From an uncultured Candidatus Saccharibacteria bacterium (GTDB taxonomy: Bacteria > Patescibacteriota > Minisyncoccia > Phycocordibacterales > UBA1006): a stretch of DNA of 49,072 nt. Positions 906 to 46,769 of this stretch are shown piece after piece. Numbering within the stretch: the first letter of the stretch is position 1; each line of letters begins with the position of its first letter. The notes under the pieces are model-generated. The model worked only from the letters and a program-made list of their open reading frames with translations. It had not been told where the DNA came from and ran no database searches. The position numbers were made by a program, and so were the translations under genes. The stretch is taken from contig CAZVLM010000002.1 in assembly GCA_964628065.1 (NCBI GenBank), positions 18,993 to 68,064 of the forward strand, given 5' to 3'.

Positions 906-1397
906 ATGAATTTCTCATTGAACGAACTGCCGGCGATTGCTACAGAAGTGATCAAGAAGGCAGAACTTAATAAGTCTTCCGAACATGCAACGCTGATTAC
1001 TTTTTCAGGAGATCTTGGGGCTGGAAAAACAACCTTAATACAGGAAATTGCAAAGCAGTTCGGTATTGCTGAAGACTTACAAAGCCCTACGTACGTTATA
1101 TATAAGAAGTATGAACTTCGCAAACCTCACCCCGCCGGCTTCGCCGAGCGCCCTCTCCTGCAAGGAGAGGGGTTCCGAACCGTGCCTTGGGAGTACTTAA
1201 TCCATGGCGATATGTACCGACTTGAATCAAGTAGTGAGGTAGAAACATTAGGATGGGACGACTTGCTTAGAAACCCGGAAAACATCCTTCTTATAGAGTG
1301 GCCTGAGAAAATCGCTGATAAAATCCCCAATTGGGCCTTAAAACTTAAAATAAGTCATATAAATCAAGGGGAATTGAGGGATATTGACTTTGGATAG
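906..1397 (+). CDS. tsaE: tRNA t6A37 biosynthesis ATPase TsaE, carrying an in-frame repeat insertion
   Basis: P-loop GDLGAGKTTL, SPTY...Y, H-x-D-x-YRL and LIEWPE blocks typical of TsaE/YjeE. TGCTAGGAT box lies 6 nt before the ATG. Confidence 0.85.
   Translation: MNFSLNELPAIATEVIKKAELNKSSEHATLITFSGDLGAGKTTLIQEIAKQFGIAEDLQSPTYVIYKKYELRKPHPAGFAERPLLQGEGFRTVPWEYLIHGDMYRLESSSEVETLGWDDLLRNPENILLIEWPEKIADKIPNWALKLKISHINQGELRDIDFG
1125..1180 (+). repeat. GC-rich palindromic element (type 1: CACCCC box + ccctctcc-tgcaa-ggagaggg hairpin), in frame inside tsaE
   Basis: cctcaccccgccggcttcgccgagcgccctctcctgcaaggagagggg read directly. Translated as PHPAGFAERPLLQGEGF, between the SPTY block and the HGDMYRL block. 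Confidence 0.85.
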
Positions 1398-1452
1398 GAA
1401 TTGTGCTATTATAGTAAAGGAAGTGATTTTTTAACCTTTAAAGTAAATAAGC

Positions 1453-1881
1453 ATGAAATTAGTAATCGCGTTTGCAAGAAATGTAGGCTCAGGACCTATG
1501 GTAATTCTAAAATTTGAAAAAGAAATTCCCAAAAAATCCGAGATTAGTAAAGAAGAAATGACAGAGCTGGTTGAAAATGTTGAAGCCAAAGATGCCGAGA
1601 CTACCTTACAAAAGGCGGTGGATAGCATGAAAAAGTATTTTGGTAACGATCTGCCAACGCCTTATCCCGATGGTCGCGAATTTGGAAAAAGAGTGCGCTA
1701 TTTGTTTCCTTACACTGCAGAGCACAAGCTAGACGGATTAGCTGCAACACTAAAGGTGTGGATGAACGAAGAAACCTCTGGCGGCGTTCATTATCCTGGC
1801 AATACCGAAATGGTGCCGGCCAATGAAAACGAAGTTGCCGTGGATGCGATTGCCGCTATAGCCACTGAAGAGCAAAATTAA
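1453..1881 (+). CDS. Hypothetical protein
   Basis: 142-aa ORF followed by hairpin aaaagcac..gtgctttt. No recognisable motif and the start is uncertain. Confidence 0.45.
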   Translation: MKLVIAFARNVGSGPMVILKFEKEIPKKSEISKEEMTELVENVEAKDAETTLQKAVDSMKKYFGNDLPTPYPDGREFGKRVRYLFPYTAEHKLDGLAATLKVWMNEETSGGVHYPGNTEMVPANENEVAVDAIAAIATEEQN

Positions 1882-1925
1882 ATAAAAAGCACTCGAGACT
1901 TGTTTCGGGTGCTTTTTACGTTGTC

Positions 1926-1934
1926 TGGTATAAT
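1926..1934 (+). promoter_or_regulatory. Extended -10 box TGGTATAAT, 6 nt upstream of the polA ATG (leaderless-type promoter)
   Basis: Sequence tggtataat-agtgat-ATG read directly. There is no purine-rich SD. Confidence 0.6.
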
Positions 1935-1940
1935 AGTGAT

Positions 1941-4361
1941 ATGAAAAAAACTGAGAAAAAAAGAATAGTGCTTTTGGATGCGCATGCGTTATTGCACCGT
2001 GCATATCATGCTCTGCCAGAGTTTACGAGCTCAAAAGGCATTCCAACTGGAGGATTATACGGATACGTATCAATGATCATTCGTATTATTTCAGAATGGA
2101 AACCCGACTATATTATTGCGTGTTACGACTTGCCCCAGAAAACATTCCGTCACGAAGCGTACGATGCGTACAAAGGACATCGCGCAAAAACAGATGAGGC
2201 GCTCGTTGCGCAAATCGAGTCATCACGATATGTTTGCGAAAAACTAGGAATTCCTATTTACGACATGCCGGGATTTGAAGCCGACGACATGCTTGGCACC
2301 ATTGTTGAGCAAACAAAAAAAGATAAAACCCTCGAGGTTCTTATTGCGACAGGGGATATGGACTCCCTGCAATTAGTGGATGGAAAAAAAGTTCGCGTGT
2401 TTACCTTAAAGAAAGGAATTAACGACACAGTTATTTACGACGAGGATGCAGTGCATGCACGATTTGGATTTGGTCCCGAATCGCTCCCTGACTTTAAGGG
2501 GCTTCGAGGAGATCCGTCTGATAACATTATCGGCGTTCCAGGTATTGGTGAAAAGACTGCAACGGAACTTATTTTGAAATTCGGAACCATAGAAAATATT
2601 TACAAAAACATTCACAAGGATAGAGAGCTACTTATCAAAGAGGGTGTAAAAGAGCGCATCGTAAAACTTCTTGAGGAGCACGAAGAGGGGGCACTGTTTT
2701 CAAAAACATTGGCAACTATTAGACGTGACGCGCCTATCACATTTACGCTTCCAGAGAAAACATGGAAGGAGTCTTGCGATCTATCTGTAGTAGAGCCGGT
2801 GCTTAAAGAGTTTGAGTTTAAGACATTGGTAATGAGATTGAAGGAGGTGTTGAATAGTGCTCAGTCTGGCGCAGCTTCCAAACCTCACCCCGCTTCGCAG
2901 AGCCTCGGCGACCCTCTCCTGCAAGGAGAGGGTGCCGAACCCGTTGTTGTCCCTCGCGAAACGCAACTTGCGTTCTGGCTCCTTAATTCCGAAATAACCA
3001 ATCCTACCGCCGATGATATTTTCATGTACACACGTACAGAAAATCTCGAAACAGCAAAAGAGTCTCTAGAAAAAGAAATTACAAAAAATGGATTAGATTT
3101 TGTTTACCGAGACATTGAGTTACCACTGATCCCGATCCTAAAAGGAATGCAAGAGCACGGCGTCCTCATTGATACAGGATTCCTTAAAGCACTTTCGGTA
3201 GATTTACACGGACAACTTGAAAAGATAGAAAAAGCTATTTATGCGCATGTTGGTCATGAGTTCAACGTAAACTCCCCAAAACAATTAGGTGAAGTACTCT
3301 TCGGAGAAATGCAGATCCATGCAAGCATCAAAGGATTCCGAGTAAAGAAAACTGCAAGTGGCACCTATTCCACAAAAGAGTCAGACCTTGAAAAACTTGC
3401 AGATGCACATCCGATCATCGCAGACATCTTTAAGTATCGCGAGCTTCAGAAATTGCTCTCTACTTATATAGATACGATGCCGACGCTTGCCGATGAAGGT
3501 TCGCGACTACATCCTGAGTTGCTTCAGATGGGAGCCGCAACAGGAAGGTTCTCTTGCCAGAATCCAAACATTCAAAACATTCCTATTCGATCAGAAGAAG
3601 GAAAGAAAATTCGAAATGCGTTTATTGCACCAAAAGAATACAGTCTCGTTTCTGCAGATTATTCCCAGATCGAGTTACGAAGCGCGGCGATTCTTTCGGG
3701 AGATCCAGTATTCATGGAAACGTTCAGTTCCGGAAAAGATGTTCATGCATCAGTTGCATCCAGAGTATTCCATGTTCCTGAAAACGAAGTAACGAGTGAT
3801 ATGCGACGAAAGTCAAAAGTCATCAACTTCGGAATCTTGTATGGAATGGGGGTGACGGCACTCCAGAAAAATCTGGGTACCAACCGGGCCGAAGCCCAGC
3901 AGTTCTATGATGAGTACTTCAAGCAATTGCCAAAACTCTCAGAGTATATGGACGATGTATTGGTACAAGCAAAGAAGTTGGGATACACAGAAACATTATT
4001 TGGAAGAAAACGATTATTCCCAGCATTAAAATCTTCCATTCCTTTCATTAAGGCAATGGCAGAACGAGCTGCAGGGAATGCGCCAATCCAAGGGACGACA
4101 GCTGATATTATTAAGCTAGCCATGATCCATGTGGATAAAGCTATCAAGGACGCAGGTCTTTCTGAAAGAGTACACATGATTATGCAAATCCATGACGAAC
4201 TGGTATTTGAGGTTGCTGATGAGGTGCTTGATAAGGCAAAAGACCTTATTAAGAAAACCATGGAGAGCGTCCTAGAAACGGTTCCTCTGAAGATTGAAAA
4301 TAAAATACCTATTGATGTTTCTATTTCCTCAGGAAAGACATGGGGAGAAGCAAAAGATTAA
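1941..4361 (+). CDS. polA: DNA polymerase I (5'-nuclease + polymerase domains; short, Taq-like middle region) with an in-frame repeat insertion
   Basis: N-terminal VLLDAHALLHRAYHA and GVPGIGEKTA (5'-3' exonuclease/H3TH). Family A polymerase motifs DYSQIELR, RRKSKVINFGILYGM and QIHDELVFE. Confidence 0.97.
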   Translation: MKKTEKKRIVLLDAHALLHRAYHALPEFTSSKGIPTGGLYGYVSMIIRIISEWKPDYIIACYDLPQKTFRHEAYDAYKGHRAKTDEALVAQIESSRYVCEKLGIPIYDMPGFEADDMLGTIVEQTKKDKTLEVLIATGDMDSLQLVDGKKVRVFTLKKGINDTVIYDEDAVHARFGFGPESLPDFKGLRGDPSDNIIGVPGIGEKTATELILKFGTIENIYKNIHKDRELLIKEGVKERIVKLLEEHEEGALFSKTLATIRRDAPITFTLPEKTWKESCDLSVVEPVLKEFEFKTLVMRLKEVLNSAQSGAASKPHPASQSLGDPLLQGEGAEPVVVPRETQLAFWLLNSEITNPTADDIFMYTRTENLETAKESLEKEITKNGLDFVYRDIELPLIPILKGMQEHGVLIDTGFLKALSVDLHGQLEKIEKAIYAHVGHEFNVNSPKQLGEVLFGEMQIHASIKGFRVKKTASGTYSTKESDLEKLADAHPIIADIFKYRELQKLLSTYIDTMPTLADEGSRLHPELLQMGAATGRFSCQNPNIQNIPIRSEEGKKIRNAFIAPKEYSLVSADYSQIELRSAAILSGDPVFMETFSSGKDVHASVASRVFHVPENEVTSDMRRKSKVINFGILYGMGVTALQKNLGTNRAEAQQFYDEYFKQLPKLSEYMDDVLVQAKKLGYTETLFGRKRLFPALKSSIPFIKAMAERAAGNAPIQGTTADIIKLAMIHVDKAIKDAGLSERVHMIMQIHDELVFEVADEVLDKAKDLIKKTMESVLETVPLKIENKIPIDVSISSGKTWGEAKD
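2883..2942 (+). repeat. GC-rich palindromic element (type 1), in frame inside polA
   Basis: cctcaccccgcttcgcagagcctcggcgaccctctcctgcaaggagagggtgccgaac. Translated as KPHPASQSLGDPLLQGEGAEP, in the linker between the 5'-nuclease and polymerase domains. Confidence 0.85.
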
Positions 4362-9271: not shown

Positions 9272-9916
9272 ATGACTGAAACAGGAGAAATATTGAAGCA
9301 GATCGCAGCCCTATCCTATGTGGGAATATTCGGCGCATCGTTTCTTGCAAATATTGTAGTTCCTGTTCCTGAGGAAGTAATCATTCTTGCGATCGGGTAT
9401 GTGGTGGGTACGGGAACGATCAGTTTCTGGATCACGCTCCCGATTGTTATTTTTGGAATGCTTCTTTCAGATGTGATTATGTTCTCGCTTTCTCTTCATG
9501 GAAACAAGATTGTGCGAACGGTCTATGATAAGTTTTTCGCAAAGATTGTTCCCATGAACCAAGAGTTTATCGAAAGTCATGTAAACAAAATTATTTTTGT
9601 AGCTCGATTCCTCGTAAACCTTCGATTCATTGGACCATTCCTCGCAGGACAGGCAAAAGTATCATACAAAAAGTTCATCCTTATCGATGGTCTTGCGATT
9701 CTTATTTATTCATCGGTACTCCTTTGGGCTGGGCACTATTTCAGCAACCGTATCGAAAGCATTTTCAGCGGCGTAGGCATTTTCAAAAACGTACTCCTTA
9801 TCGTGATCGCGATTGTTATCCTATTCTCTGTAGGCCAGGCGATTAAAAAGGCATTTTTGAAGTTTGAGAAGAAGGGGGAGGTAAAGCCTGTAGACACGAA
9901 TAATGTAGAGAAATAA
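9272..9916 (+). CDS. DedA/SNARE-associated family membrane protein
   Basis: Multi-pass membrane protein with PVPEEVIILAIGY and RFLVNLRFIGPFLAG blocks typical of DedA. TGAGATAAT lies 6 nt before the ATG. Confidence 0.8.
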   Translation: MTETGEILKQIAALSYVGIFGASFLANIVVPVPEEVIILAIGYVVGTGTISFWITLPIVIFGMLLSDVIMFSLSLHGNKIVRTVYDKFFAKIVPMNQEFIESHVNKIIFVARFLVNLRFIGPFLAGQAKVSYKKFILIDGLAILIYSSVLLWAGHYFSNRIESIFSGVGIFKNVLLIVIAIVILFSVGQAIKKAFLKFEKKGEVKPVDTNNVEK

Positions 9917-9946
9917 AAAACTGCCAATACGGCAGATTTTTATTTC

Positions 9947-10228
9947 TTACATCGTAAGCGTCGGATATACATGATTAGGGTTTCTATCTTTTTCTTCCTC
10001 ATCAACCAGGGTAAAGCGTTTTGTTCCGTCTGTATTTAAGCCGGTAAACCTTTCAATTGAAGTTATGTATAGCTGACCGTGATCATACAACGCTCGGTAC
10101 ACTACATAAAAATTGTCACCTTCCATATCGCTGTTTTTGGCAATATCAACCACGATGTATTTATTTCCGCGGTAGTGTTGGTATATTCTGTTTCGGACAA
10201 CGTCGGTTTCTAATGTTTTGAATTTCAT
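9947..10228 (-). CDS. DUF1653 domain protein
   Basis: YQHYRGNKYIVV...VVYRALYDHG matches the DUF1653 pattern (Y-x-HYKG-x-Y ... VVYR-x-LY). Confidence 0.7.
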   Translation of the reverse strand: MKFKTLETDVVRNRIYQHYRGNKYIVVDIAKNSDMEGDNFYVVYRALYDHGQLYITSIERFTGLNTDGTKRFTLVDEEEKDRNPNHVYPTLTM

Positions 10229-10240
10229 ATAGTTATAATA

Positions 10241-10942
10241 CTAAGATAACTTTTTATATTTTTTATAAAGGCTGTCAACTCTTTCCTTGTAATAATCAAA
10301 CACTTCTGGATAGTTGGCGCGCAATAGCTGAGCAGATCCAAGTGTCATTAAGTTATCCTTCTCGATCGCTTTTTGTATATATTCTTCTCCTTCCCAAAAT
10401 GAGCCGACATCAATCTGTGCGAGTTCTCCTGATCTGAGGTATCCGTAGTTGTGATCCCAGTTAAACGTATCCTCGGTAATGCCCTTGTCCCAAATTTGAG
10501 AGATGAGACCAATTACGTCATCAATCACCGTCTTCAACTTCTCAAGGCGATTTTCGTCATCTAAACTTTTAAGTCGATCACATACGAGTTCTACCTTTTC
10601 TTGAATAAGAAAAGGTGTTTCAGATACCACGTATCCCTGCCCATCCAGTGTGATTGTTTTAATAGGGGATTCAGCCCCTGCCTGATGGAAGTATATAAGG
10701 CCGGTTTCTTCTCTAAGTTTATCATTGGCTAATTGATAACTTATTGAATCATGTTCGAACCAGTCTCGAGTCAGCTCTTCTGGTTGCTTGCCCCATTTTA
10801 TAAACTGTTCTTTCCCCTCTTCAAATGTTTTTTGTCTTTTCAATACAAAACCTCCGTCGGCACTTATATAGGCTCGTGCTTGTACACCTTCGCCGAGGAA
10901 TGTATAAGGTTGGGAGAGTATTGTTTTAAGATCGTAGTGCAT
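10241..10942 (-). CDS. Putative atypical protein-kinase-fold protein
   Basis: GEGVQARAY (Gly-loop-like), VLKR (Lys), NYGY...AQIDVG (catalytic Asn / metal Asp-like). Start moved to ATG 10942, which has TATACT 6 nt upstream. Confidence 0.35.
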   Translation of the reverse strand: MHYDLKTILSQPYTFLGEGVQARAYISADGGFVLKRQKTFEEGKEQFIKWGKQPEELTRDWFEHDSISYQLANDKLREETGLIYFHQAGAESPIKTITLDGQGYVVSETPFLIQEKVELVCDRLKSLDDENRLEKLKTVIDDVIGLISQIWDKGITEDTFNWDHNYGYLRSGELAQIDVGSFWEGEEYIQKAIEKDNLMTLGSAQLLRANYPEVFDYYKERVDSLYKKYKKLS

Positions 10943-18283: not shown

Positions 18284-19471
18284 TTATTTAATATCTTTAT
18301 CGTAATCTACATCCGATATCTTGTAAGACTTTCTGATATAGAACCAGTTAGTGATGCGATTCGCAAAGTAGCCAATCGCGGCGAGGACGACGAAGTAGCC
18401 CAGTCCAAACAGTGTGAATTTTGGAATAGAGCTGGTCGTGAAAAGTCCGATAAGCGTTGCGCCAACTCCCATCGATGTTACGACGGTGAGGTTTTTTACC
18501 GAGTTCTGGGTCGCCTGAGACTCGAGTGATCCGAAGAGGTCATTCGCCGAGTTCACATAGTTCTTTGTCATGTTCCAAATTTGCTTGAGATAATCCAGCG
18601 TGTCGCCCATTGCTTCGTAGCGGTATTCGAGAAGGGAAATGAATCCCTTGAGACTCTCGTCACTTTTCACAATTCTTTCGCGAGTACGCAAATATGCACC
18701 CATTTGGTTGATGCGAGCCTCGATAAGGTTGATCGTCTTCGCATAACCCTGAATCTTATGACGGAATCCTCCGACATCGCCACCCTTAATTGCGCCTTGC
18801 TCTTTGACTTTTGCAATGTTTTCCCAAATAGTTCGATGAAGGTTAAGGTACTGGTGAAGCTGAGCTTTGAATTCGCGAAGAAAGATTTGTTCCTCAATAA
18901 AGTGTTTCGAATGCTTTTCGCCGTCCTCTCCTTTAAGGTGAATGATATACAGCTTGTCGCCTCGGAAAAGGTCAAAGTGTTCTCCTGATGATTCAAAGTA
19001 GGTTTTTTCTTTGAACTGTTCCATGAGAGCTGCTATTTCAGAACGTTCAGCATTTTCTACGACGACGAAATAAGGATAGATGGTTTTAATATTTGCAATT
19101 TCTTTTGGAACTGGTGCGCCAAGACTAAAAATGTAGCCGAGAGCTGGAGAGAGTTGGTTGTCATAATAAGTCGTAAGTGATCGTACATCAGTCGCAAGAT
19201 CTCCTTCTAGGGTGAATTCCCGATTGAGTACAATCAATCCATCTTCGGTAATTCTAACAAATACACCGCTTTTGGATTTGTAATCCACACGTTCGAATCC
19301 TCGTAGTGTAAGATGCAACGACTCAATATCTAGTTTTTTCTGCAAACTCTTGAGTTTTGCCGGATCAAGCGCAAGCCCTGATTTTGCATCCCGTAAAAAA
19401 TCATAGATCTCAGAAAGATGAAGCGTGGTTCTCTGGAACCATCCGCCGACATAGACTGTTTTGATGTTCAT
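18284..19471 (-). CDS. Hypothetical protein with CorA-like topology (large soluble N-domain + 2 C-terminal TM), no GMN motif
   Basis: C-terminal LTVVTSMGVGATLIGLF and LFGLGYFVVLAAIGYF helices. Start set to ATG 19471 (TATAAT-aattcc-ATG). Confidence 0.45.
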   Translation of the reverse strand: MNIKTVYVGGWFQRTTLHLSEIYDFLRDAKSGLALDPAKLKSLQKKLDIESLHLTLRGFERVDYKSKSGVFVRITEDGLIVLNREFTLEGDLATDVRSLTTYYDNQLSPALGYIFSLGAPVPKEIANIKTIYPYFVVVENAERSEIAALMEQFKEKTYFESSGEHFDLFRGDKLYIIHLKGEDGEKHSKHFIEEQIFLREFKAQLHQYLNLHRTIWENIAKVKEQGAIKGGDVGGFRHKIQGYAKTINLIEARINQMGAYLRTRERIVKSDESLKGFISLLEYRYEAMGDTLDYLKQIWNMTKNYVNSANDLFGSLESQATQNSVKNLTVVTSMGVGATLIGLFTTSSIPKFTLFGLGYFVVLAAIGYFANRITNWFYIRKSYKISDVDYDKDIK

Positions 19472-19517
19472 GGAATTATTATAACTCAAAATGTCTAAAA
19501 TGTTATACTTACGATCT

Positions 19518-19928
19518 ATGAACCCAATCACCATACAAACCCTTATCAAAGCTGATATCCAAAAAGTCTGGGACTACTGGAACGAGCCTGCTCATATTAC
19601 GCAGTGGTGCCACGCCTCAGATGATTGGGAATGTCCAAAATCAACAAATGATCTGAAAGTTGGTGGAAGTTTTGTTTCTACTATGGCAGCCAAAGATGGT
19701 TCGTTCTCATTTGATTTTGGTGGAACGTATACGGAGATTGTTCCTCTTGAAAAAATTGCCTATGTTATGGAAGACGGAAGAAAAGTAGGGGTTTTGTTTA
19801 AGCATGAAGGAGACAGTGTCCGCGTCGTTGAAACATTTGATCCAGAAACGCAGAATCCTAAAGAAATGCAACGAGCAGGGTGGCAGTCTATTTTGGATAA
19901 TTTTAAGGAGTATGTGGAAAATAATTAA
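19518..19928 (+). CDS. SRPBCC-superfamily (AHSA1/START-like) protein
   Basis: ITIQTLIKADIQKVWDYWNEPAHITQW...FDFGGTYTEIVPLEKIAY is typical of the Aha1-like SRPBCC family. TGTTATACT lies 8 nt before the ATG. Confidence 0.75.
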   Translation: MNPITIQTLIKADIQKVWDYWNEPAHITQWCHASDDWECPKSTNDLKVGGSFVSTMAAKDGSFSFDFGGTYTEIVPLEKIAYVMEDGRKVGVLFKHEGDSVRVVETFDPETQNPKEMQRAGWQSILDNFKEYVENN

Positions 19929-26680: not shown

Positions 26681-27763
26681 ATGAGCTTTTTTTCATTGTT
26701 TGAAAAACCAAAACCATCCGTTGCATTTTCATTTGATAATGGGTATGTGCGATTTGTGTCTGTGATACGGGAAAAAAATGGAATACAAATTACTGATCAT
26801 GGATCAGAATTTTTCGGTCCAGAAATTATGAATGAACGCGATGCTATCGTAGATGACGCAGCGTTCGTACGAAAGATTCGTGCAATCAATAATGCAGGCA
26901 AGGACAAAGTAAAATTTGAGTCAGTAAACATTGTCATCCCTGATCGCCAAGCCATCATGTTCCATACGCACGTCGCGAAAATGGCAGATAAGGAAATGGA
27001 CGCTGTTATTGTTGACCATATTAAGACGTATTGCGAGTCACATGACTTATTGGATGTAAAATCTTATATTTGCGAGTACGATATTATTTTAAAAACTGAT
27101 TACGGTTACGACGTGCACGTAACGCTCGTGCCAAAACTTTATGTTGAACACATTGTGAGATTGTTCAAGCAGGCAGGGATCGCGGTAAAACATATTGAAA
27201 CCGCTCATCATGCGGTAGCAAAGTCATGCCTTGAGATAGCTCCAGGGTTTGGATACGTACTAGTTTCGTTTGGAACCAAGCAAACATCCATCGCGCTTCT
27301 TCATGGAGAACATCTTGTCTCTCAAAGTACAGTTGCGGTTGGTGTAGAGAATCTTTACAAAACAATCGAGCGATTCCTAGGCGTGGGTCGCGAAGACTCA
27401 AAGCGAATTATTAACAAGCATGGCATTTTGCAAACGCATCCTGACAATGGGCTTCTTTCAGAACTGTATCTGGAACTTGCGCCTATTTATCGAATGATCG
27501 ACAACCAGCTCATTACTATTGGCACGATGCCATATAAAACATTTGGTCACCGGTTTACGACACATGATGTGATCGTGTACGGGGAAGGGGTTTCTGTAAA
27601 AGGTCTTGTAGGATTTTTGGGAGAGCGAACAAACCTTAACGCCCAGGAACTTGATCCTTGGGCGGGTCACACCGAAGACCGCGCGCCAATCTTGAATCTG
27701 CCTGCATCGGAGACGTTGGTGTATGCGGAGGCATTGTCGCTCGCGTTGCTCTATTTGAAATAG
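26681..27763 (+). CDS. pilM: Type IV pilus assembly protein PilM-like (actin-fold ATPase)
   Basis: Length, N-terminal FSLFEKPKPSVAFSFDNGYVRFV and an actin-like two-lobed layout typical of PilM. No pilNOPQ genes are adjacent. Confidence 0.6.
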   Translation: MSFFSLFEKPKPSVAFSFDNGYVRFVSVIREKNGIQITDHGSEFFGPEIMNERDAIVDDAAFVRKIRAINNAGKDKVKFESVNIVIPDRQAIMFHTHVAKMADKEMDAVIVDHIKTYCESHDLLDVKSYICEYDIILKTDYGYDVHVTLVPKLYVEHIVRLFKQAGIAVKHIETAHHAVAKSCLEIAPGFGYVLVSFGTKQTSIALLHGEHLVSQSTVAVGVENLYKTIERFLGVGREDSKRIINKHGILQTHPDNGLLSELYLELAPIYRMIDNQLITIGTMPYKTFGHRFTTHDVIVYGEGVSVKGLVGFLGERTNLNAQELDPWAGHTEDRAPILNLPASETLVYAEALSLALLYLK

Positions 27764-31382: not shown

Positions 31383-32417
31383 ATGAATAAATATTTTTGG
31401 ATGGGAGCTGGCATACTAATTATTACGGGTGTATTTCTTGTCTGTACAAATAATAAGTACATGCAGGCTTCGGTAATGAATGCATTAAAAATTAATACCA
31501 CAGATGCACAAGTCTTTTTAATGGGAGGGGATACGATTGTTGCTGGTCAAGCAAATATTTGCCACAACGATGTCTACTCATCTCGTGACATGATTAATTG
31601 GAAATTAATATCTCCTGATAATCAGAACCCTGGTACCACTAAGTGGAGCCCAAGAGGGGGACAATCGACGCTTTATTTTAATAATAAACTTTGGGTTATT
31701 GGAGGACAGGATTGCCAAGGAGACCCATCGAATGAGGTCTGGTCTTCTTCTGATGGTAATAGTTGGAAACTTGAAGGAGTAATAGGAACAAATTTCTCAG
31801 ATTTTCGAAGTCAACAAACGGCGGTAGTTTTCAAAAACAGAATGTGGGTAATCGGAGGACATACAGGTGTGAGCATGTGGAATGATGTATATTCTTCTTC
31901 TGATGGTGTGACATGGAGACTGGAAACAGGTAATGCTCCTTGGGCTCAGAGATACGGACACTTGTCATTTGTCTATAACGATAAAATATGGGTTATGGGA
32001 GGGGCTAATAGTGTTGGTGGCGTGTTTGCAAATGATGTATGGTTTTCAGGAGATGGAAAAAATTGGACACAGGCAACGGCTCACGCGGTATGGTCTCCAC
32101 GATTTGGATTAATGGGAGGTGTTTATAATGGGAAAATGTATGTCTTTGGCGGTTCTGACCTCTCCGGTACTTTTAATGATGTCTATTCTTCCGCTGATGG
32201 GGTGACATGGACTCCTGTTGCTCAGAACCAGTGGCAGGGACGACCTCTTGGAGTATCTGTAGTATTAAATAAGAAGTTGTACCTACTGGGCGGGATAAAA
32301 AACAACTATCTCAGTTTGAACGATGTTTGGAGCTATGATGGATCCATTTGGAAAAATGTGACTAATAATCCTGCATGGAATGGCCGATTTATTCACAGTG
32401 CAGTAGTAGCTCAATAG
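31383..32417 (+). CDS. Membrane-anchored beta-propeller protein (Kelch-like blades with Asp-box S-x-D-G-x-x-W)
   Basis: Five to six repeats of ...LWVIGG... + DV(W/Y)SS(S/A)DG(x)xW(x)L. N-terminal TM anchor. TATACT lies 6 nt before the ATG. Confidence 0.7.
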   Translation: MNKYFWMGAGILIITGVFLVCTNNKYMQASVMNALKINTTDAQVFLMGGDTIVAGQANICHNDVYSSRDMINWKLISPDNQNPGTTKWSPRGGQSTLYFNNKLWVIGGQDCQGDPSNEVWSSSDGNSWKLEGVIGTNFSDFRSQQTAVVFKNRMWVIGGHTGVSMWNDVYSSSDGVTWRLETGNAPWAQRYGHLSFVYNDKIWVMGGANSVGGVFANDVWFSGDGKNWTQATAHAVWSPRFGLMGGVYNGKMYVFGGSDLSGTFNDVYSSADGVTWTPVAQNQWQGRPLGVSVVLNKKLYLLGGIKNNYLSLNDVWSYDGSIWKNVTNNPAWNGRFIHSAVVAQ

Positions 32418-32431
32418 TTAAAAACTGCGCT

Positions 32432-33997
32432 ATGCAAAAAGCCCTCAAAATGATTCCTGAGATTGCGAGAAACTTATTCAGGATTAAGTATTTAATATGG
32501 TATGTGGTCGCGGTTGCAGCTACTGCGCTTCTTTCTGCATTAAATGTAGATGCATGGTATTTCGCGTATTTTCAAAATACGAATGCTTACACATTTTTCA
32601 TACTGGCGGGATTGCTTGGATTTTTCGTTCCCATCATCGGATGGGGAATACTGCTTACTATAGGAAACGTTAAAAAATCACAGCGACTTCAAAAGGCGGC
32701 ATGGATGTTTGCATTATCTGGAATACTTGGCTATTTATGTTCTACTTTCTTGAAAGTCTTTACTGGACGGATCGGACCACCGCACGGCATCGTTGCAAAT
32801 CTTGTTGAGTTATCGCATACATTCCAATTAGGAATCTATAAGGGAGGAATTTTTTGGGGTTGGCCGTCTTCGCATACAACCGTTGCATTTGCGATGTCAG
32901 TTGCGCTGGCTGTTTATTATAAGGACAAGAAGTGGGTTGGCGTGCTCGCGATCATTTATGCGGTATATGTCGGCATCGGCGCTTCGATGAGTTTCCATTG
33001 GTTGGGCGACGTTGTTGCTGGAATTATTTTCGGATCGATTATTGGAATTGTGGTGGGAAAAGTATTTTCAAAACCAGTCCACAAAACCGTTATTGAGGAA
33101 AGGGAACTTATTAAAATTCTAAGAAAAGAATTCAGCGGCCCCATTTCAGAAATCGTGTCACTTACCGGAGGGGAAGGATCGCAGGCGTTCAGTTTCAAAT
33201 TTAACAATGAGTATTACGTCATAAGAGTAAGCGACAAGGGAGCAGAAGCTTACTTAAAAGATGAATACGCGTATAAACATTTTAAGTCTCCACTGATACC
33301 AATGCCTGAAGTACTGAAAGTGCACGAGTCCGAAAATGGTTATTCTTATGCCATTACAAAAAAGGTTTCAGGATCGCTAATAAAAAGTCTTTCATTGGAA
33401 GAACTTGAGAAAACAATCCCGGACTTATTCAAAGTCCTGGATGAGATTCATAAGACCGATATAAGTAAGACAGTAGGATATGCCGATTGGAATCGAGACG
33501 GAGTAGGCATTAGCAAATCATGGAAAGAGGCTATCTTAGATGTCGGTGAATTTATTATTGATAAGAAGACAGGGAAAAGCATGTTCGATACTACTATGCT
33601 TGAAAAAGATTTTTGGGATAAAGCATATGCGCAATTAACGGAGCTTTTGCAATTTTGCCCAGAAGATCGATGGCTGGTGCATGGTGACTATGGATCAGAT
33701 AATACTCTTGCGAAGAATGGAAAAGTTACAGGCGTAATCGATTGGGGAGGATCGATGTATGGAGACTTCTTGTATGATATTGCATGGCTTGAATTCTTTT
33801 CAAAAGGATATTCGTATGAAGAAGTCTATAAAAAGCATTTAGTTTCTCAAAACAGATTGCCTGAACATTTCGACGAACGCGTTCGCTGTTACAAACTTTG
33901 GATTGGTATGAGTTCGATGAGTTTCTACGCGTATTCAGATCAACGAGATAAGTACAAAAGGTCTAAAGGAAAAATAGAAAAACTTTTGCAAAAATAA
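32432..33997 (+). CDS. Fusion protein: N-terminal PAP2-type membrane phosphatase + C-terminal aminoglycoside-phosphotransferase (APH)/choline-kinase-fold domain
   Basis: PAP2 motifs KVFTGRIGPP / WPSSHT / SFHWLGDVVAG. Kinase-fold motifs VHGDYGSDNTL and GVIDWGGSMYGDFLYDIAW. Confidence 0.75.
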   Translation: MQKALKMIPEIARNLFRIKYLIWYVVAVAATALLSALNVDAWYFAYFQNTNAYTFFILAGLLGFFVPIIGWGILLTIGNVKKSQRLQKAAWMFALSGILGYLCSTFLKVFTGRIGPPHGIVANLVELSHTFQLGIYKGGIFWGWPSSHTTVAFAMSVALAVYYKDKKWVGVLAIIYAVYVGIGASMSFHWLGDVVAGIIFGSIIGIVVGKVFSKPVHKTVIEERELIKILRKEFSGPISEIVSLTGGEGSQAFSFKFNNEYYVIRVSDKGAEAYLKDEYAYKHFKSPLIPMPEVLKVHESENGYSYAITKKVSGSLIKSLSLEELEKTIPDLFKVLDEIHKTDISKTVGYADWNRDGVGISKSWKEAILDVGEFIIDKKTGKSMFDTTMLEKDFWDKAYAQLTELLQFCPEDRWLVHGDYGSDNTLAKNGKVTGVIDWGGSMYGDFLYDIAWLEFFSKGYSYEEVYKKHLVSQNRLPEHFDERVRCYKLWIGMSSMSFYAYSDQRDKYKRSKGKIEKLLQK

Positions 33998-40906: not shown

Positions 40907-40979
40907 GGGGGTTATGGTGTAACGGTTAACACTCGGGTTTGTGGTACCCGCAATCTGGGTTCGATTCCCAGTAGCCCCC
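40907..40979 (+). tRNA. tRNA-His (anticodon GUG) with encoded G-1
   Basis: GGGGGTTATGGTGTAACGGTTAACACTCGGGTTTGTGGTACCCGCAATCTGGGTTCGATTCCCAGTAGCCCCC. Anticodon loop UUGUGGU. The extra 5' G pairs with C73. Confidence 0.9.
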
Positions 40980-40985
40980 CAAGTA

Positions 40986-41015: not shown

Positions 41016-41882
41016 TTAAGAATTTTTTGGTATATAGAAATCCTTCTTAAACTTAGTTCGCCATTTTTCGGCTTCCTTTTTCGATCGCGTGAATGTCATG
41101 CGAACTTTATCGTTTCGGTTGCATAGCGTCGAAAGTTCTTTAAGATTGTGCGCATCGACGGTTTTGTATTTCTTAAAAAAAGTATCTAAGTCATTGCCAA
41201 ATTTTTTGCTTGTTTTTACTTTGAAAATGAAGTCGCCAAGCACGTTGATGTATTCAGTATTTCCAAGACCATAATGAGTGCCAGTATTTATTTGTAAGTA
41301 GACTCCGGACCAGTCCTTTTTGAATGCTTTGTCGAGCGGTGTATTTCCGCCTAAGGCAAAGAATACAAGTTTTCTATCTTCTTTAATACGGCTCAAGAAA
41401 AATGTTTCTGCTGTGTTTCTTGTATGGATAAGCCATTCGTGCGGATGGAAGACAAGAATCGGGTCCCGTGGATCATGTTGCTCGAAAATCATGTCGTATG
41501 TATGTGCCCAGTAGATCCCCATAAGGTTTGGGTTTTTGAATGAGTAAGTAATCTTGTCGCCTTCCTTAAATGAGAGAATGCTGTCACTATCCATGACGGC
41601 AGGGGATTCGATGTGCTTCTTACCGAATCTGTAGATACGCTGCAACCAGTGACGGTTTATTTCATAAATCTTTCCGTGCTTACTTAATACTTCTTCTTTT
41701 AATAGAGACCGAAGAATTCGATAGAACGTCTCCTTAGAAATAGAAGCATCTTTTTTCTTAAGCTTTAAAAGGAGGGAAGGGCCTTCGGCGGCTTCCTTAT
41801 GTAGGGTTTCTAATATGAGTTCCTCAAGGGATTTTTTAGTTTGGCTGGATAGGAGCATAAATAAAGTGTCATATTCTGACAC
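41016..41882 (-). CDS. Hypothetical protein with an N-terminal winged-helix-like segment (possible regulator), divergent from the CDPS gene
   Basis: ISKETFYRILRSLLKEEVLSKHGKIYEIN resembles a wHTH recognition helix plus wing. The rest is unrecognised. GTG start. Confidence 0.4.
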   Translation of the reverse strand: MSEYDTLFMLLSSQTKKSLEELILETLHKEAAEGPSLLLKLKKKDASISKETFYRILRSLLKEEVLSKHGKIYEINRHWLQRIYRFGKKHIESPAVMDSDSILSFKEGDKITYSFKNPNLMGIYWAHTYDMIFEQHDPRDPILVFHPHEWLIHTRNTAETFFLSRIKEDRKLVFFALGGNTPLDKAFKKDWSGVYLQINTGTHYGLGNTEYINVLGDFIFKVKTSKKFGNDLDTFFKKYKTVDAHNLKELSTLCNRNDKVRMTFTRSKKEAEKWRTKFKKDFYIPKNS

Positions 41883-41920
41883 TTACAAGCGATATTACTT
41901 ATAAAAGTAACCAATGTCAA

Positions 41921-42613
41921 ATGATTCGATTATGCTCTGTGGGAATTACTTCACTTAAAAATATTCTTATGAAAATAATAGAAGCGTCAGATATCGGCAA
42001 GAAAGTTTTGGAAGAGAAGGGTATTCTTATTCTTGGCTTAAGCATTAACAACAGGTATTTCAGCGAAGAGAATATCGAAAAGCTAATGAACTGGGCTGCG
42101 CCTGCTTCATCGACTTGCATTATGATTCCAGACGAACCTGCCGTATGTACCATGATGGCTCTTGGCAAAAGTAGGGAAGATGCAGAAAGAGTTGCAAGGC
42201 TCAAGTCGAATGCTCTCGAAAATAAATGCAAAAAAATTCAGGAACGCCTAAATCTTTCAAGTGTCACCATACTGCGCTGGAAAGATATTAAGACGAATAT
42301 ATCTTATCAGCATGCCTCTTCCCATATTCAAAAGGTATACAATGTTGATGCGTCATTTGCTGCGGCGATTGATGAAACGACAAGAGAGGTGCTTAAAAAT
42401 GCGAATTCAGCAGAGCCAAGCGAGCAGCAGATTTCCATAGGAATTCAGTTCTTACTTCAGGAACTCGCATTCATTACTTATGCTGATTGCTTCTTTAGCG
42501 GACGAGACGTAGCTTACGTATATCACCGCACAATGAAAATCTTAAAAGATATTGTAGACGGCAAATATACTTTCCGAGCCGGGCGCCAGATTGGTTTCAT
42601 AACAGCAGAATAA
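41921..42613 (+). CDS. tRNA-dependent cyclodipeptide synthase (CDPS), NYH-type
   Basis: Blocks LGLSINNRYFSEENIEKLMNWA, GKSREDAERVARLK, QFLLQELAFI, YVYHRT and FRAGRQIGF are colinear with AlbC/YvmC as recalled. The alternative start ATG 41969 would give 214 aa. Confidence 0.85.
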   Translation: MIRLCSVGITSLKNILMKIIEASDIGKKVLEEKGILILGLSINNRYFSEENIEKLMNWAAPASSTCIMIPDEPAVCTMMALGKSREDAERVARLKSNALENKCKKIQERLNLSSVTILRWKDIKTNISYQHASSHIQKVYNVDASFAAAIDETTREVLKNANSAEPSEQQISIGIQFLLQELAFITYADCFFSGRDVAYVYHRTMKILKDIVDGKYTFRAGRQIGFITAE

Positions 42614-42618
42614 GTTTT

Positions 42619-42642
42619 AAAGCCCCAGCAATGGGGCTTTTT
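42619..42642 (+). terminator. Hairpin aaagcccc-agcaat-ggggcttt + TT after the CDPS gene
   Basis: Read directly, 6 nt after the CDPS stop codon. Confidence 0.65.
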
Positions 42643-42678: not shown

Positions 42679-43410
42679 ATGGATACAGGAACATCATTTG
42701 AGCGATTTGCAGAACAATACGATAGCGACATGGGCGATACGGGAAGCTATAATCACAAGTACACCATTGATCCGCCACTATTTGAGATTATTGGAAATCC
42801 AGAAGGATTAACCATTTACGATATTGCATGCGGAAATGGCTACATTGCCCGAAAACTTAAAAAAGAAGGGGCAAAAGAAATTTATGCGACCGATATTTCA
42901 GAAAGTCTCGTAAGGCTTGCCACAGAAAAATATGACGAATCAGGAATCAAGTATTCCGTACAACAAGGCGAAGATTTTTCAGGAATTCCAGAAAACCATT
43001 TCGATCTCGTCATTATTCACATGGCTATTTGGTATATTGCAGACGTGGATGCTTTTTTAAAAAACGTTCGCAAGGTATTAAAGCCAGGTGGGAGATTCAT
43101 CTTTTCAATAGATCATCCGATGAAGTGGTCACTTTATCGAGCTATTGGCGCAGTCCTTCAAGATGAAACTAATAAGGAAGAAGAAAAATATTTAGAAGCT
43201 CGCAAGGTAAGAACGTTTAATAATTGGCTCCAAATCCAAGAAGACCTGACAGTATACTTCAGGCCAATGAGTTATTATATGAACCTCTGCGGAGCAAACA
43301 ATCTTCTTATAAAAACCGTAAAAGAGCCCTACTCAAAAATCTTAAGAAAGGGGACTGAATATGAAAGCGGGATTCCTATGAAAATGATTGTAGAAACAAT
43401 AAAAGCCTAA
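42679..43410 (+). CDS. Class I SAM-dependent methyltransferase
   Basis: IYDIACGNGYIA motif I, LKPGGRFIFS motif. Start moved to ATG 42679, downstream of the terminator hairpin. Confidence 0.8.
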   Translation: MDTGTSFERFAEQYDSDMGDTGSYNHKYTIDPPLFEIIGNPEGLTIYDIACGNGYIARKLKKEGAKEIYATDISESLVRLATEKYDESGIKYSVQQGEDFSGIPENHFDLVIIHMAIWYIADVDAFLKNVRKVLKPGGRFIFSIDHPMKWSLYRAIGAVLQDETNKEEEKYLEARKVRTFNNWLQIQEDLTVYFRPMSYYMNLCGANNLLIKTVKEPYSKILRKGTEYESGIPMKMIVETIKA

Positions 43411-44921: not shown

Positions 44922-46769
44922 TCAATAATAAGCTTTCAAGAATCTAAGAGCGCTATCGCGTTCAGAAAGTGCTTTTTCTGTGGATTCTTCAAGAGGGTCA
45001 AGCAGTTTCGAAAGGAACGTAATATCCGTTAAAATGGTAATAGACATAAGACTGCTTCGTGCGAGTTCTATATGATTGAAAACATCACTCGCAACCTGGT
45101 CAATAATTTCATACCAGAATAGTTTTTGAAGGGCATCCTTTTCGGTTGTAAGATTAAGTTCATATTCGTGATTATCCTTCTGCAAGTATTGTGCAATAAG
45201 GGGAGTGCTGACTGAATTTAAAAATCCATTCTGTAAGTCATGAAACCAATCATGCGCATCGTCATTTAACTGTCGCGCAATAAGGTAATGCCGGAAAAAC
45301 GATTCAAGCGCCGAAATCTCTTTTATCTTGTCCGGATGATGAGAAGCAAGAATAAGGAGAAGGGGAGCAATGGCGAGTCCTAATGATTTTTCTGCCAACA
45401 CAGAATGGTCTACATAATCTGGTAATATCGCAGGAAGATGAATAACTGAGTTTACTACAGAGCATTTGCAATGAGTGTACTCCCAGTGATTGGCAGTGTC
45501 GATAGTGTTCAAGGTTGTGATAATGACAGGGTCTGATGAAATACTTAAAAAGATGCTTAACATTTCACGGGCGCAGATATTTGCAGCAGGGAGGTCTTTT
45601 ATTTTACCGTCATCCAGTACGTCGTCATAGAAGGTATACCCAATCCAACCAAGCGCGTTTGCAAAACAAAGTTTTTCTATCATTGTGCCATCTAAGCTCT
45701 GATAGTCAGGAATAATGTGTTGGTAAAACGTCCTAGGAAGATTTGCGAGAGCGGATAATTTTTTGAACGAATTAAACTCTTGGAGAATAGGTTCTGAGAT
45801 AGTCGGTGGATAATCCTTAAGGAAATTATTAATCATGAGCTCTGTGTTTTCATTATGAGACAGAGGAGGTATTGGCTGGTGACATGCTTTATCATAAAGA
45901 GAAAGTGCTTCAATGATGGCAGTACAAGTAAATGCCTCGCATCCACTCCAATGAATGGCGTCTTTTGTAACTTTTTCTATAAATACAGGACAGTTCTTGA
46001 TTTCTGTATTTAATATAACCTCATCAACAAGTCTCTTGATTGTGCTTAGCTCACCATAAAGGTTTATATGAGCAGATATGAAGAGGGCTTTTTCTAATGG
46101 ATTTGCAGGTGTTTCCTTATCAAGAAGGATAAGCAAATCTTTTTGCAATGCGCCACGATACCACTTTGAGAGGAAATAGATAATAACAATAGGGGATTTG
46201 TAATAATCAGATCGTAAATCAACCTGCTTAATTTTGTCTTCAATAAAAGTGGTTAAGTTTGGTAGATCAATACCCATAACGGATAGAAAGTGCATAATGT
46301 TGCTGTTTACAACAATGTCTACATCTTTCCATGATTGCCTCATCTCGCACGGTACATCCCAGGTAAAATAGGGGCCACCTTCGGCGGTTTCGTTGCGGAT
46401 TAGGGTGTTAACGATGCTTACCATGGCCTCCTCGTCTATAATACTCGGGTCATAGAGATAAAGAGCAGCTAGTGCGATGCAAGTGTCGTCGAGATCGTCA
46501 GGGAGGTCAGAATGGATTTCGTTTGGTAACCTTGCGCGGTAGTTCCACGTCCAGGATAAACTTTTTTGGTTAATAAGGTGGCCCGCGAGTGCGTCTTTCT
46601 CATGCTTGAGATCTTCAATGTTAAGTGAAGAAATAATTTGTAGTATGAGTGAGGGGTAGAAATTTGTGGGAGTGTTTGTGTAAGGTGTACTTGAAATGGT
46701 TCCATGAGAAAGAAAGTCCTTTAGTAAAAGAATGTGATTTGAAAGCGACGTATGAAGTTGTGTACTCAT
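44922..46769 (-). CDS. Two-domain terpenoid cyclase/synthase-like protein (N: alpha/alpha-toroid-like with DLDDT; C: class I isoprenoid-synthase-like with two DDxxD)
   Basis: DDLDDT at 46482..46499. YDDVLDD at 45609..45629. QLNDDAHD at 45249..45266, 120 residues after the first DDxxD (FARM/SARM-like spacing). Confidence 0.5.

Follow-up and report, generated by a model that had tools for sequence, protein, structure and literature searches.

Introduction

The closest described tRNA-dependent cyclodipeptide synthases (CDPSs), namely AlbC from Streptomyces noursei, YvmC from Bacillus, Shae-CDPS (PDB 6ez3) and BtCDPS, come from actinobacterial, firmicute and proteobacterial hosts. In Bacillus the gene belongs to a YvmB/PchR-yvmC-cypX system, in which expression of the CDPS gene is under the control of a winged-helix regulator encoded beside it; PchR, of MarR type, is small and lacks any extra domain, and a P450 tailoring enzyme and a transporter are also encoded in the cluster. 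Here we analyze a CDPS gene and its divergently transcribed partner in a 49,072-nucleotide stretch of DNA, referred to throughout as the window, whose host falls outside these groups in the Patescibacteria. The window pair resembles the Bacillus system in that a winged helix-turn-helix (wHTH) gene lies beside the CDPS gene, and differs from it in the extra domain of the partner protein and in having no conserved tailoring gene. Three elements are central to the analysis:

41969..42613, + strand: CDPS coding sequence, NYH subfamily, 214 aa plus stop, defined from hidden Markov models (HMMs), alignments and a structural model
41016..41858, - strand: divergent partner gene, 280 aa plus stop, with a predicted N-terminal wHTH and a C-terminal domain of TrmB/phospholipase D (PLD)-like fold
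41865..41883, either strand: perfect palindrome AGTGTCA-TATTC-TGACACT (AGTGTCATATTCTGACACT, 19 bp), candidate operator of the partner protein

We consider it likely that 41969..42613 encodes a functional NYH CDPS that forms a module with a divergent regulator and a palindromic operator. The family membership, fold, and catalytic and pocket residues of the enzyme are shown by the analysis, as are the conserved pairing and the conserved palindrome, while enzymatic activity and product are inferred by analogy with characterized CDPSs.

By the affiliation of its sequences the host is a Patescibacteria (Paceibacteria-type) bacterium. All named relatives of the CDPS or of its partner come from Patescibacteria metagenome-assembled genomes (MAGs), with record titles that read Nomurabacteria, Paceibacterota, 'Patescibacteria group' or, in third party annotation (TPA) records, Saccharibacteria, in agreement with an earlier note on this DNA that had described the genome as resembling those of the candidate phyla radiation (CPR). 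That note had also regarded a CDPS as unexpected in such a genome, which was an overstatement as CPR CDPSs are listed in one study (PMC5816076) and one of them has been characterized in another (PMC7613923). Gondry et al. (2018) reported more than ten, from Parcubacteria, Microgenomates, Moranbacteria, Azambacteria, Kaiserbacteria, Buchananbacteria, Ryanbacteria, Andersenbacteria and Kerfeldbacteria, and two of these (Ryanbacteria, Andersenbacteria) carry the P1 pocket motif of the clade described here (PMC5816076). The enzyme of Parcubacteria RAAC4_OD1_1 (ParcuCDPS; PDB 7QB8) makes the cyclodipeptides cHP and cHE, its crystal structures have been solved, and it shows that CPR enzymes of this kind can be active (PMC7613923, PMC5816076). 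The gene alone is therefore no discovery, the enzyme family and its presence in the CPR being already documented; what is added here is a corrected start codon, a Phe that stands in for AlbC Tyr178 throughout the clade, and a conserved regulator of TrmB-like type together with its palindrome. Secondary metabolism is nearly absent from the tiny genomes of Patescibacteria, and a conserved enzyme that consumes two charged tRNAs for each diketopiperazine is therefore likely to be important for their lifestyle, for example in signaling or antagonism toward a host or neighbors, and the candidate regulator and operator could show when these organisms make the compound.

Results and Discussion

Family assignment and gene model

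The open reading frame (ORF) at 41921..42613 (+), from which the earlier note set out, runs from ATG to stop over 230 aa and contains all of the peptide strings quoted there. Its identification as a CDPS with the conserved blocks of that family was borne out far beyond chance. The ORF scored 91.8 bits against Pfam PF16715 (gathering cut-off 27; E=6.9e-26; profile positions 12-216 of 220) and 135 bits against the NCBIfam model TIGR04539, 'tRNA-dependent cyclodipeptide synthase' (cut-off 45; E=2.7e-39), in both cases far over the curated cut-off. A phmmer search of PDB sequences matched CDPSs only, with E values for seven solved CDPSs of 1.6e-9 to 2.5e-7 (6ez3 1.6e-9, AlbC 3oqv 6.9e-9, BtCDPS 1.4e-8, YvmC 1.4e-7), and in these alignments the AlbC strings that the note had quoted agree with the 3oqv sequence. 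With AlbC, YvmC, 6ez3 and BtCDPS the window protein shares the Pfam/TIGRFAM family, the fold, the Ser nucleophile, the Glu, the Tyr-His pair, the N-Y-H signature and, judged by sequence, a putative basic helix after the 'GKSxxxAER' block, yet it is only about 20% identical to them.

The coding sequence almost certainly starts at ATG 41969 (Met17 of the 230-aa ORF) rather than at 41921, the start that the note had implied. This placement follows because the database-called product (P0001) is 214 aa long, all 27 of the 27 CDPS homologues compared (38-57% identical, about 215 aa) start at the equivalent M-E/K-I-K-E, and ATG 41921 falls within a conserved promoter element, TGTCAAATG; the non-coding element TGTCAAAT(G), which contains this ATG, is invariant across genomes. 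The corrected gene model matters, since some CDPSs are known to have come out 'inactive' owing to a misplaced start codon. Residue numbers below are those of the 214-aa protein, and adding 16 gives the numbering of the longer ORF. The ends of the gene are flanked by:

41921..41968, + strand: 16-codon N-terminal extension of the longer ORF, upstream of Met17, where the homologues and the database protein begin; from sequence conservation probably untranslated promoter and 5' leader
42619..42642, + strand: GC-rich hairpin (42619..42640) followed by a U run, beginning 6 nt past the CDPS stop codon; -17.5 kcal/mol, z = -4.66

The hairpin is probably the intrinsic terminator of the CDPS gene. The earlier note had made the same proposal, and a stable fold and a U run are present, but a simple terminator scan did not flag the element. 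At the other end of the gene, an A-rich TAAAA(C)-like box is conserved 10-15 nt 5' of the CDPS ATG (window 41950-41968, with equivalents in loci L001-L037), and no Shine-Dalgarno sequence is visible in the same segments.

Predicted fold and active site

An AlphaFold2 model of the CDPS, built on a 28-sequence alignment, reached a mean predicted local distance difference test (pLDDT) score of 92.4 and a predicted template modeling (pTM) score of 0.88. All of the top 50 listed Foldseek matches to this model in the PDB are CDPSs, with NYH members ranking first (6ez3, YvmC, BtCDPS, AlbC, Rv2275; E about 1e-14 to 1e-12). The template modeling (TM) score is 0.85-0.90 for most NYH structures (6ez3, YvmC, BtCDPS, Rv2275), 0.77 for AlbC 3oqv, and about 0.7 for XYP CDPSs including the Parcubacteria enzyme 7qb8, and the model accordingly shows the class-Ic aminoacyl-tRNA synthetase-like Rossmann fold and superposes on solved CDPSs as the earlier assignment had anticipated. 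ParcuCDPS, an XYP enzyme in contrast to the NYH protein of the window, is matched with a Foldseek E of about 1e-6 and a phmmer E of about 1e-3, and its pockets (GAYAWELY / FEWKYTR) differ from those of the window enzyme.

The NYH subfamily is defined by Asn40, Tyr202 and His203 in AlbC numbering (PMC7613923), and the window protein is placed in it because Asn28, Tyr185 and His186 fit this definition. The alignment with AlbC, checked against the mutated AlbC positions listed in PMC3105412, locates the active-site positions as follows, all on the + strand:

42041..42043 (AGC): Ser25, predicted acyl-enzyme Ser, equivalent to AlbC S37
42050..42052 (AAC): Asn28, equivalent to AlbC N40
42449..42451 (TTC): Phe161, at the AlbC Y178 position, invariant in the clade
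42461..42463 (GAA): Glu165, equivalent to AlbC E182
42521..42526 (TAT-CAC): Tyr185-His186, equivalent to AlbC Y202-H203

The Ser codon with the Asn that follows it, the catalytic Glu and the Tyr-His pair had all been singled out in the earlier note, and each aligns with its AlbC counterpart. None of S, N, E, Y and H varies in the 28 homologues or in the 46 closest representatives at 50% identity. In addition, R74, R77, K79, K86, K88 and K89 fall in the helix that aligns, by sequence only, with the alpha4 basic patch R87-R102 of AlbC, which serves tRNA binding there.

A natural Phe at the position of AlbC Tyr178

For the block 'IQFLLQELAFI' the earlier note was right in its alignment of the Glu but overlooked that the position of AlbC Tyr178 is occupied by Phe. 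Phe161 stands opposite the AlbC-type Tyr178 in three independent pairwise alignments, at a position that is one of four residues described as conserved throughout the CDPS family (PMC7613923). The Phe is nevertheless invariant in the 28 close homologues, and the 46 closest representatives have it as well. When 1.84 billion proteins were searched exhaustively with HMMER, the 174 nearest representatives had Phe at position 178 in 75 cases and Tyr in 92, and nearly all of the 174 keep S (occasionally C), N, E, Y and usually H. Moreover, Tyr-to-Phe mutants of ParcuCDPS and of three XYP CDPSs still form product (PMC7613923). As the Phe is common in relatives and such mutants are active, its presence does not imply inactivity; on these alignments Phe161 is a natural variant of this CDPS branch and offers no ground for exclusion from the family. 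Since the rest of the active site is strictly conserved, we infer that the clade is active without the Tyr178 hydroxyl.

Weighing against an enzyme of ordinary efficiency is the Y178F mutant of AlbC, itself an NYH enzyme, which was found to be 'poorly active' and to form less acyl-enzyme (PMC3105412), so that catalysis in the clade may be slow, or another group may compensate, the invariant Tyr183 (P1 position 200) being a candidate. The same mutant, together with the inactivity of many metagenomic CDPSs on expression in E. coli (PMC5816076), lends some weight to the alternative that the window protein is a CDPS homologue impaired or repurposed through the missing hydroxyl, for instance one that only binds aminoacyl-tRNA or that stops at the acyl-enzyme stage. 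We regard such a loss of function as unlikely. S, N, E, Y, H and the whole of P1 are invariant across sequences that are only 38-57% identical, which argues for selection on catalysis, Phe is frequent at this position among relatives, and four other CDPSs stay active as Tyr-to-Phe mutants.

The clade-wide natural replacement of Tyr178 by Phe, and of the Ser nucleophile by Cys in sister clades, bears on the catalytic role proposed for Tyr178. Cys takes the place of the catalytic Ser in CDPS homologues encoded beside partner homologues at L008 4091-4816 (-), L022 2091-2816 (-) and L024 2104-2823 (-), which have the signature C-N-Y-E-Y-H/Y and the P1 pocket LAFTWFIY. This signature also occurs in several of 150 representatives (e.g. 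P0180, P0187, P0205-P0207), and AlbC S37C has been reported to be active (PMC3105412).

Substrate pockets and predicted product

At the pocket positions given in PMC5816076, P1, the pocket for the first substrate (33-35-65-67-119-185-186-200), reads I-G-M-P-W-F-I-Y and is invariant in the clade save for its first residue (xGMPWFIY), while the second pocket, P2 (152-155-156-159-204-206-207), reads T-E-V-N-R-M-K and differs between genomes. No characterized CDPS has the xGMPWFIY pocket. However, sheet 'NYH CDPSs' of DataSheet4 in PMC5816076 includes, as ungrouped entries of unknown activity, Ryanbacteria OGZ44804.1 (LGMPWFIY / TGCGRMP) and Andersenbacteria OGY31047.1 (LGMPWLIY / TGVGRMP), whose P1 is the same as or near-identical to that of the window enzyme and whose P2 is similar (TGCGRMP versus TEVNRMK). 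The match of IGMPWFIY to LGMPWFIY of OGZ44804.1 supports the pocket alignment and suggests that this pocket type had been catalogued by 2017 in the census of Gondry et al., a relationship drawn from the pocket motif alone for proteins of different genomes, for which PMC5816076 gives no product or gene context.

The nearest pockets of characterized enzymes are those of CDPS 100, which makes cyclo(Pro-Pro) (cPP; CGHPWLLY / TDVHRIP), CDPS 77, which makes cyclo(Leu-Val) (cLV; LGFPWLVF / TGARRMD), and CDPS 84, which makes cyclo(Phe-Ile) (cFI; LGLPWFLF / IRVTRSP) (PMC5816076). P1 of the window enzyme shares G, P, W and Y with the cPP synthase, and like motifs are also present in the cLV and cFI synthases. 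On this basis a Pro- or Leu-containing cyclodipeptide may be offered as a weak guess, against which stands the statement of Gondry et al. that prediction of specificity from xGxPW pockets is unreliable (PMC5816076). By homology to AlbC, the aminoacyl group of a first aminoacyl-tRNA would move to Ser25, a second aminoacyl-tRNA would give rise to a dipeptidyl-enzyme positioned by Glu165, and Tyr185 would aid cyclization to the 2,5-diketopiperazine; the hydroxyl of AlbC Tyr178 would be dispensed with, the position being Phe161.

The product is probably a plain cyclodipeptide, because no tailoring enzyme is conserved beside the gene; P450, oxidase and methyltransferase tailoring genes are all missing from the conserved neighborhood, a further difference from AlbC, YvmC, 6ez3 and BtCDPS. 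The methyltransferase encoded downstream was considered for this role and rejected, as the gene 3' of the CDPS is a different one in six other genomic contexts, with DUF1003, HIT, giant fn3, asparaginase and ABC transporter proteins encoded there. No tailoring enzyme is therefore evident, given that the methyltransferase is not conserved beside other CDPSs and that the strong hairpin and U run at 42619..42642 separate it from the CDPS.

The methyltransferase itself (window 42679-43410, +) is a class I S-adenosylmethionine-dependent enzyme (Methyltransf_11, E=7e-21). Its start is more likely ATG 42679 than the annotated ATG 42631, because the latter falls inside the probable CDPS terminator hairpin, and its weak PADLOC similarity to 'mad2' is due solely to the generic methyltransferase domain.

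Conservation and linkage of the divergent partner

Besides the window, 15 other distinct contexts (L001-L011, L014-16, L020-22, L024, L026-28, L037) have the divergent CDPS-partner pair, with a spacing between the genes of 108-184 nt, mostly 108-141. The flanking genes are different in every context, and no other gene of the neighborhood is conserved. Genome contigs were scanned with the partner alignment, a scan with the single CDPS protein having matched nothing. The partner, whose start is Met9 of a GTG-initiated ORF, has 101 homologues at 37-94% identity, and the named ones are all from Patescibacteria. It is more conserved than the CDPS, with a mean identity to the window protein of 56% versus 40% across 15 distinct pairs, and genomes with 47-50% identity between their CDPSs show 59-61% between their partners; the identities of the two proteins co-vary (r = 0.79, n = 15).

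Linkage in the other direction is looser, which weighs against a regulator that serves the CDPS exclusively. Among 22 species-representative genomes the partner adjoins a CDPS in ten and stands without an adjacent one in 12, so it is not a regulator dedicated to the CDPS, and the CDPS-less loci include 6 of the 16 genomes whose partner is at least 45% identical to that of the window. A search of the partner's neighbors in CDPS-less loci with the clade HMM, filters off, revealed no cryptic CDPSs, and Pfam assigned these neighbors to unrelated families or to none. The sole CDPS of known context that lacks the partner is P0027, the most divergent one checked (38% identity), which is encoded beside type IV secretion genes.

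The CDPSs linked to the partner fall into three classes. Class 1, that of the window, has the signature S-N-F-E-Y-H with P1 xGMPWFIY; class 2 combines the same signature with P1 AGVVWFFN; and class 3 has the signature C-N-Y-E-Y-H/Y, P1 LAFTWFIY and a natural Cys nucleophile. Class 2 enzymes are encoded at L010 4252-4860 (-) and at about 2250-2860 (-) in L026, L027 and L028, beside a tRNA-Arg(GCG) gene.

Several individual loci add detail. The P0027 locus (L036 1547-3409; GCA_034680565.1, JAXOUH010027354.1) has TraG-like, TraC-like, PrgI and TrbL type IV secretion neighbors, and its CDPS may lie on a mobile element; a co-directional 274-aa ORF of unknown function overlaps the start of the CDPS, and a 126-aa ORF follows. 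In one subclade (L018, L019, L025 and L029, each at 1223-3043, -) the gene divergent from the partner encodes, in place of a CDPS, a 607-aa protein whose only Pfam match is zf_Tbcl (treble-clef zinc finger), with the same palindrome between the genes. A second, divergent partner paralogue lies less than 2.5 kb from the first at L020 548-1438 (-) and L032 512-1321 (+), with HMM scores of 167 and 38 bits, respectively.

Predicted structure of the partner

The model of the partner (pLDDT 87.7) comprises a wHTH in residues 11-67, built from helices 11-21, 26-36 and 42-54 followed by a wing of strands 58-61 and 64-67, then a linker helix and a C-terminal alpha/beta domain. The best Foldseek matches are the archaeal regulators TrmBL2 (5bpi_C, E=1.8e-6) and TrmB (3qph_A, 2.5e-4), each at a Foldseek probability of 1.0, followed by PLD-fold proteins (Nuc, Zucchini, F13, MITD1, FAM83) and the wHTH regulators PadR and Fur. 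An N-terminal wHTH, probably joined to a C-terminal alpha/beta domain of PLD-like topology, is common to the partner and to TrmB/TrmBL2, whereas the Patescibacteria-only distribution sets the partner apart.

Two results count against close kinship with TrmB. The global TM score to TrmB/TrmBL2 is only about 0.3, and the domain-level TrmB-like assignment is for this reason held with moderate confidence. Likewise, no Pfam family exceeded threshold for the partner, TrmB and Regulator_TrmB included, the best TrmB E value among 43 members being 0.0022. Sub-threshold wHTH HMM matches were present in 11-20 of these 43 members, the C-terminal domain had no Pfam match in any of them, and a literature search found nothing that links CDPSs with TrmB.

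The shared control region and proposed regulation

The palindrome AGTGTCA-N5-TGACACT occurs once in the 49-kb window, within the intergenic region shared by the two genes. In 25 fetched loci GTGTCA-N5-TGACAC is present exactly once per locus, always a few to ~36 nt upstream of the partner's ATG, and the CDPS-less loci L018, L019, L023, L025 and L029 have the same palindrome. Distant partner homologues (28-41% identical; L012, L030-L035) are instead preceded by AGTAAA...TTTACT-type palindromes about 20-60 nt upstream. As the type of palindrome changes with the partner subfamily while its place does not, the sequences suggest that operator and partner protein co-evolve within the family. With its 6-7-nt arms and 5-nt spacer, the palindrome would, as the partner's target, be a further feature in common with the TrmB/TrmBL2 regulators, and it resembles the Thermococcales TGM motif, TATCAC-N5-GTGATA. 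Two further elements belong to the control region:

41892..41920, - strand: sigma-70-like promoter TTGACA (41920..41915)-17-TAATAT (41897..41892), facing the partner; score 10/12
41931..41936, + strand: TATGCT box, fixed 11 nt from a TGTCAA box in all aligned loci

The palindrome begins directly after the -10 box of the partner promoter, a geometry that fits autorepression. All CDPS-bearing loci have kept the TGTCAA box, which is invariant, and a TATGCT-like box, and the TATGCT box is a candidate, from this conservation, for the -10 element of the CDPS promoter. We propose that the CDPS and the TrmB-like factor (41016..41858, -) constitute a two-gene divergent module, in which the partner would bind the 19-bp palindrome (41865..41883) of the control region that the genes share and, responding to a small-molecule cue that its C-terminal domain binds, repress its own promoter and co-regulate the CDPS. 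That the protein which binds the palindrome is the partner, and that its C-terminal domain binds a ligand, are readings suggested by the sequence comparisons.

Two observations in the control region speak against this arrangement. The promoter scan identified no clear sigma-70 promoter for the CDPS, and the palindrome, which the terminator scan flagged, could act as an RNA hairpin in the 5' leader of the partner. A protein-DNA site is favored over an RNA hairpin because the palindrome is invariant, with no compensatory changes within the subfamily.

The nature of the cue allows a more ambitious proposal, in which the locally made cyclodipeptide would itself bind to the C-terminal domain of the partner as its ligand, so that synthase and receptor would form a pair, either by LuxI/LuxR-like autoinduction or as an intracellular read-out of charged tRNAs. 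The divergent layout with its shared, operator-bearing control region, the co-variation of CDPS and partner identities and the lack of any other conserved neighbor all fit such a pair. We nonetheless find it improbable, for the CDPSs span three P1 pockets (xGMPWFIY, AGVVWFFN, LAFTWFIY) with variable P2, yet the operator and the invariant residues of the partner stay constant, and partner and operator also occur without an adjacent CDPS. On the same grounds the cue of the regulator is probably not the local cyclodipeptide. We give similarly little credence to a self-contained Patescibacteria signaling module in which the PLD-like domain would sense the cyclodipeptide or charged-tRNA status and switch transcription at the palindrome, an arrangement that, if true, would give ultra-small episymbionts a minimal circuit for quorum sensing or host sensing.

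It is very unlikely that the partner, rather than being a regulator, uses a PLD-like catalytic domain as a tailoring or hydrolytic enzyme of the cyclodipeptide or of tRNA, for although the C-terminal domain matches PLD-fold enzymes in Foldseek (Nuc, Zucchini, PLD, phosphatidylserine synthase) and several His, Asp and Glu residues are invariant (H119, H138-P-H140-E-W142, E151, D176 and D209, notably H138-P-H140-E), the HxK(x)4D motif is absent from the partner (its closest stretch, H138-P-H140-E-W-L-I-H/Y, is without the Lys and Asp), TrmBL2 and TrmB, which it matches best in structure, are not enzymes, an N-terminal wHTH is combined with an invariant palindrome before the protein's own gene that changes with the subfamily, and the partner occurs without a CDPS.

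Genomic surroundings

The CDPS and its probable TrmB-like regulator lie among the housekeeping and envelope genes that the earlier note had described. The window encodes PolA, a Mur ligase, Ddl, RelA/SpoT, a histidine kinase, seven tRNAs and an amidase, the last being an N-acetylmuramoyl-L-alanine amidase (Amidase_3 plus a peptidoglycan-binding domain). A phage or defense origin was set aside, as neither CDPS nor partner has a significant PHROGs or PADLOC match, and so was recent horizontal transfer, for which there is no compositional signal (GC content 0.38-0.41 against an even ~0.41 across the window).

A tRNA-His(GTG) gene lies at window 40908-40980 (+), 36 nt past the stop codon of the partner. 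L021 has a tRNA-His gene at the same position, L006 and L020 have one no more than 3 kb away, and most other loci lack it. A functional link, by analogy to His-using CDPSs, was considered and rejected as inconsistent: tRNA-His accompanies 4 of 16 loci, tRNA-Arg four others and the rest have no tRNA nearby. Residual synteny is the probable reason for the adjacency.

Elsewhere, a few kb from the CDPS pair of L008, a Patescibacteria MAG contig carries genes of the cyclic-oligonucleotide-based antiphage signaling system (CBASS) type at 9371-10846 (-), with Cap15-like and CD-NTase C-terminal domains. Within the window, three ORFs at 18287-19549 (-), 26681-27760 (+) and 44925-46769 (-), of 421, 360 and 615 aa, match no Pfam family at E<=1e-5, and the gene at 32375-33994 (+) encodes an unusual fusion of a PAP2 phosphatase (residues 109-229) with an APH/fructosamine-kinase-like phosphotransferase (residues 257-520).

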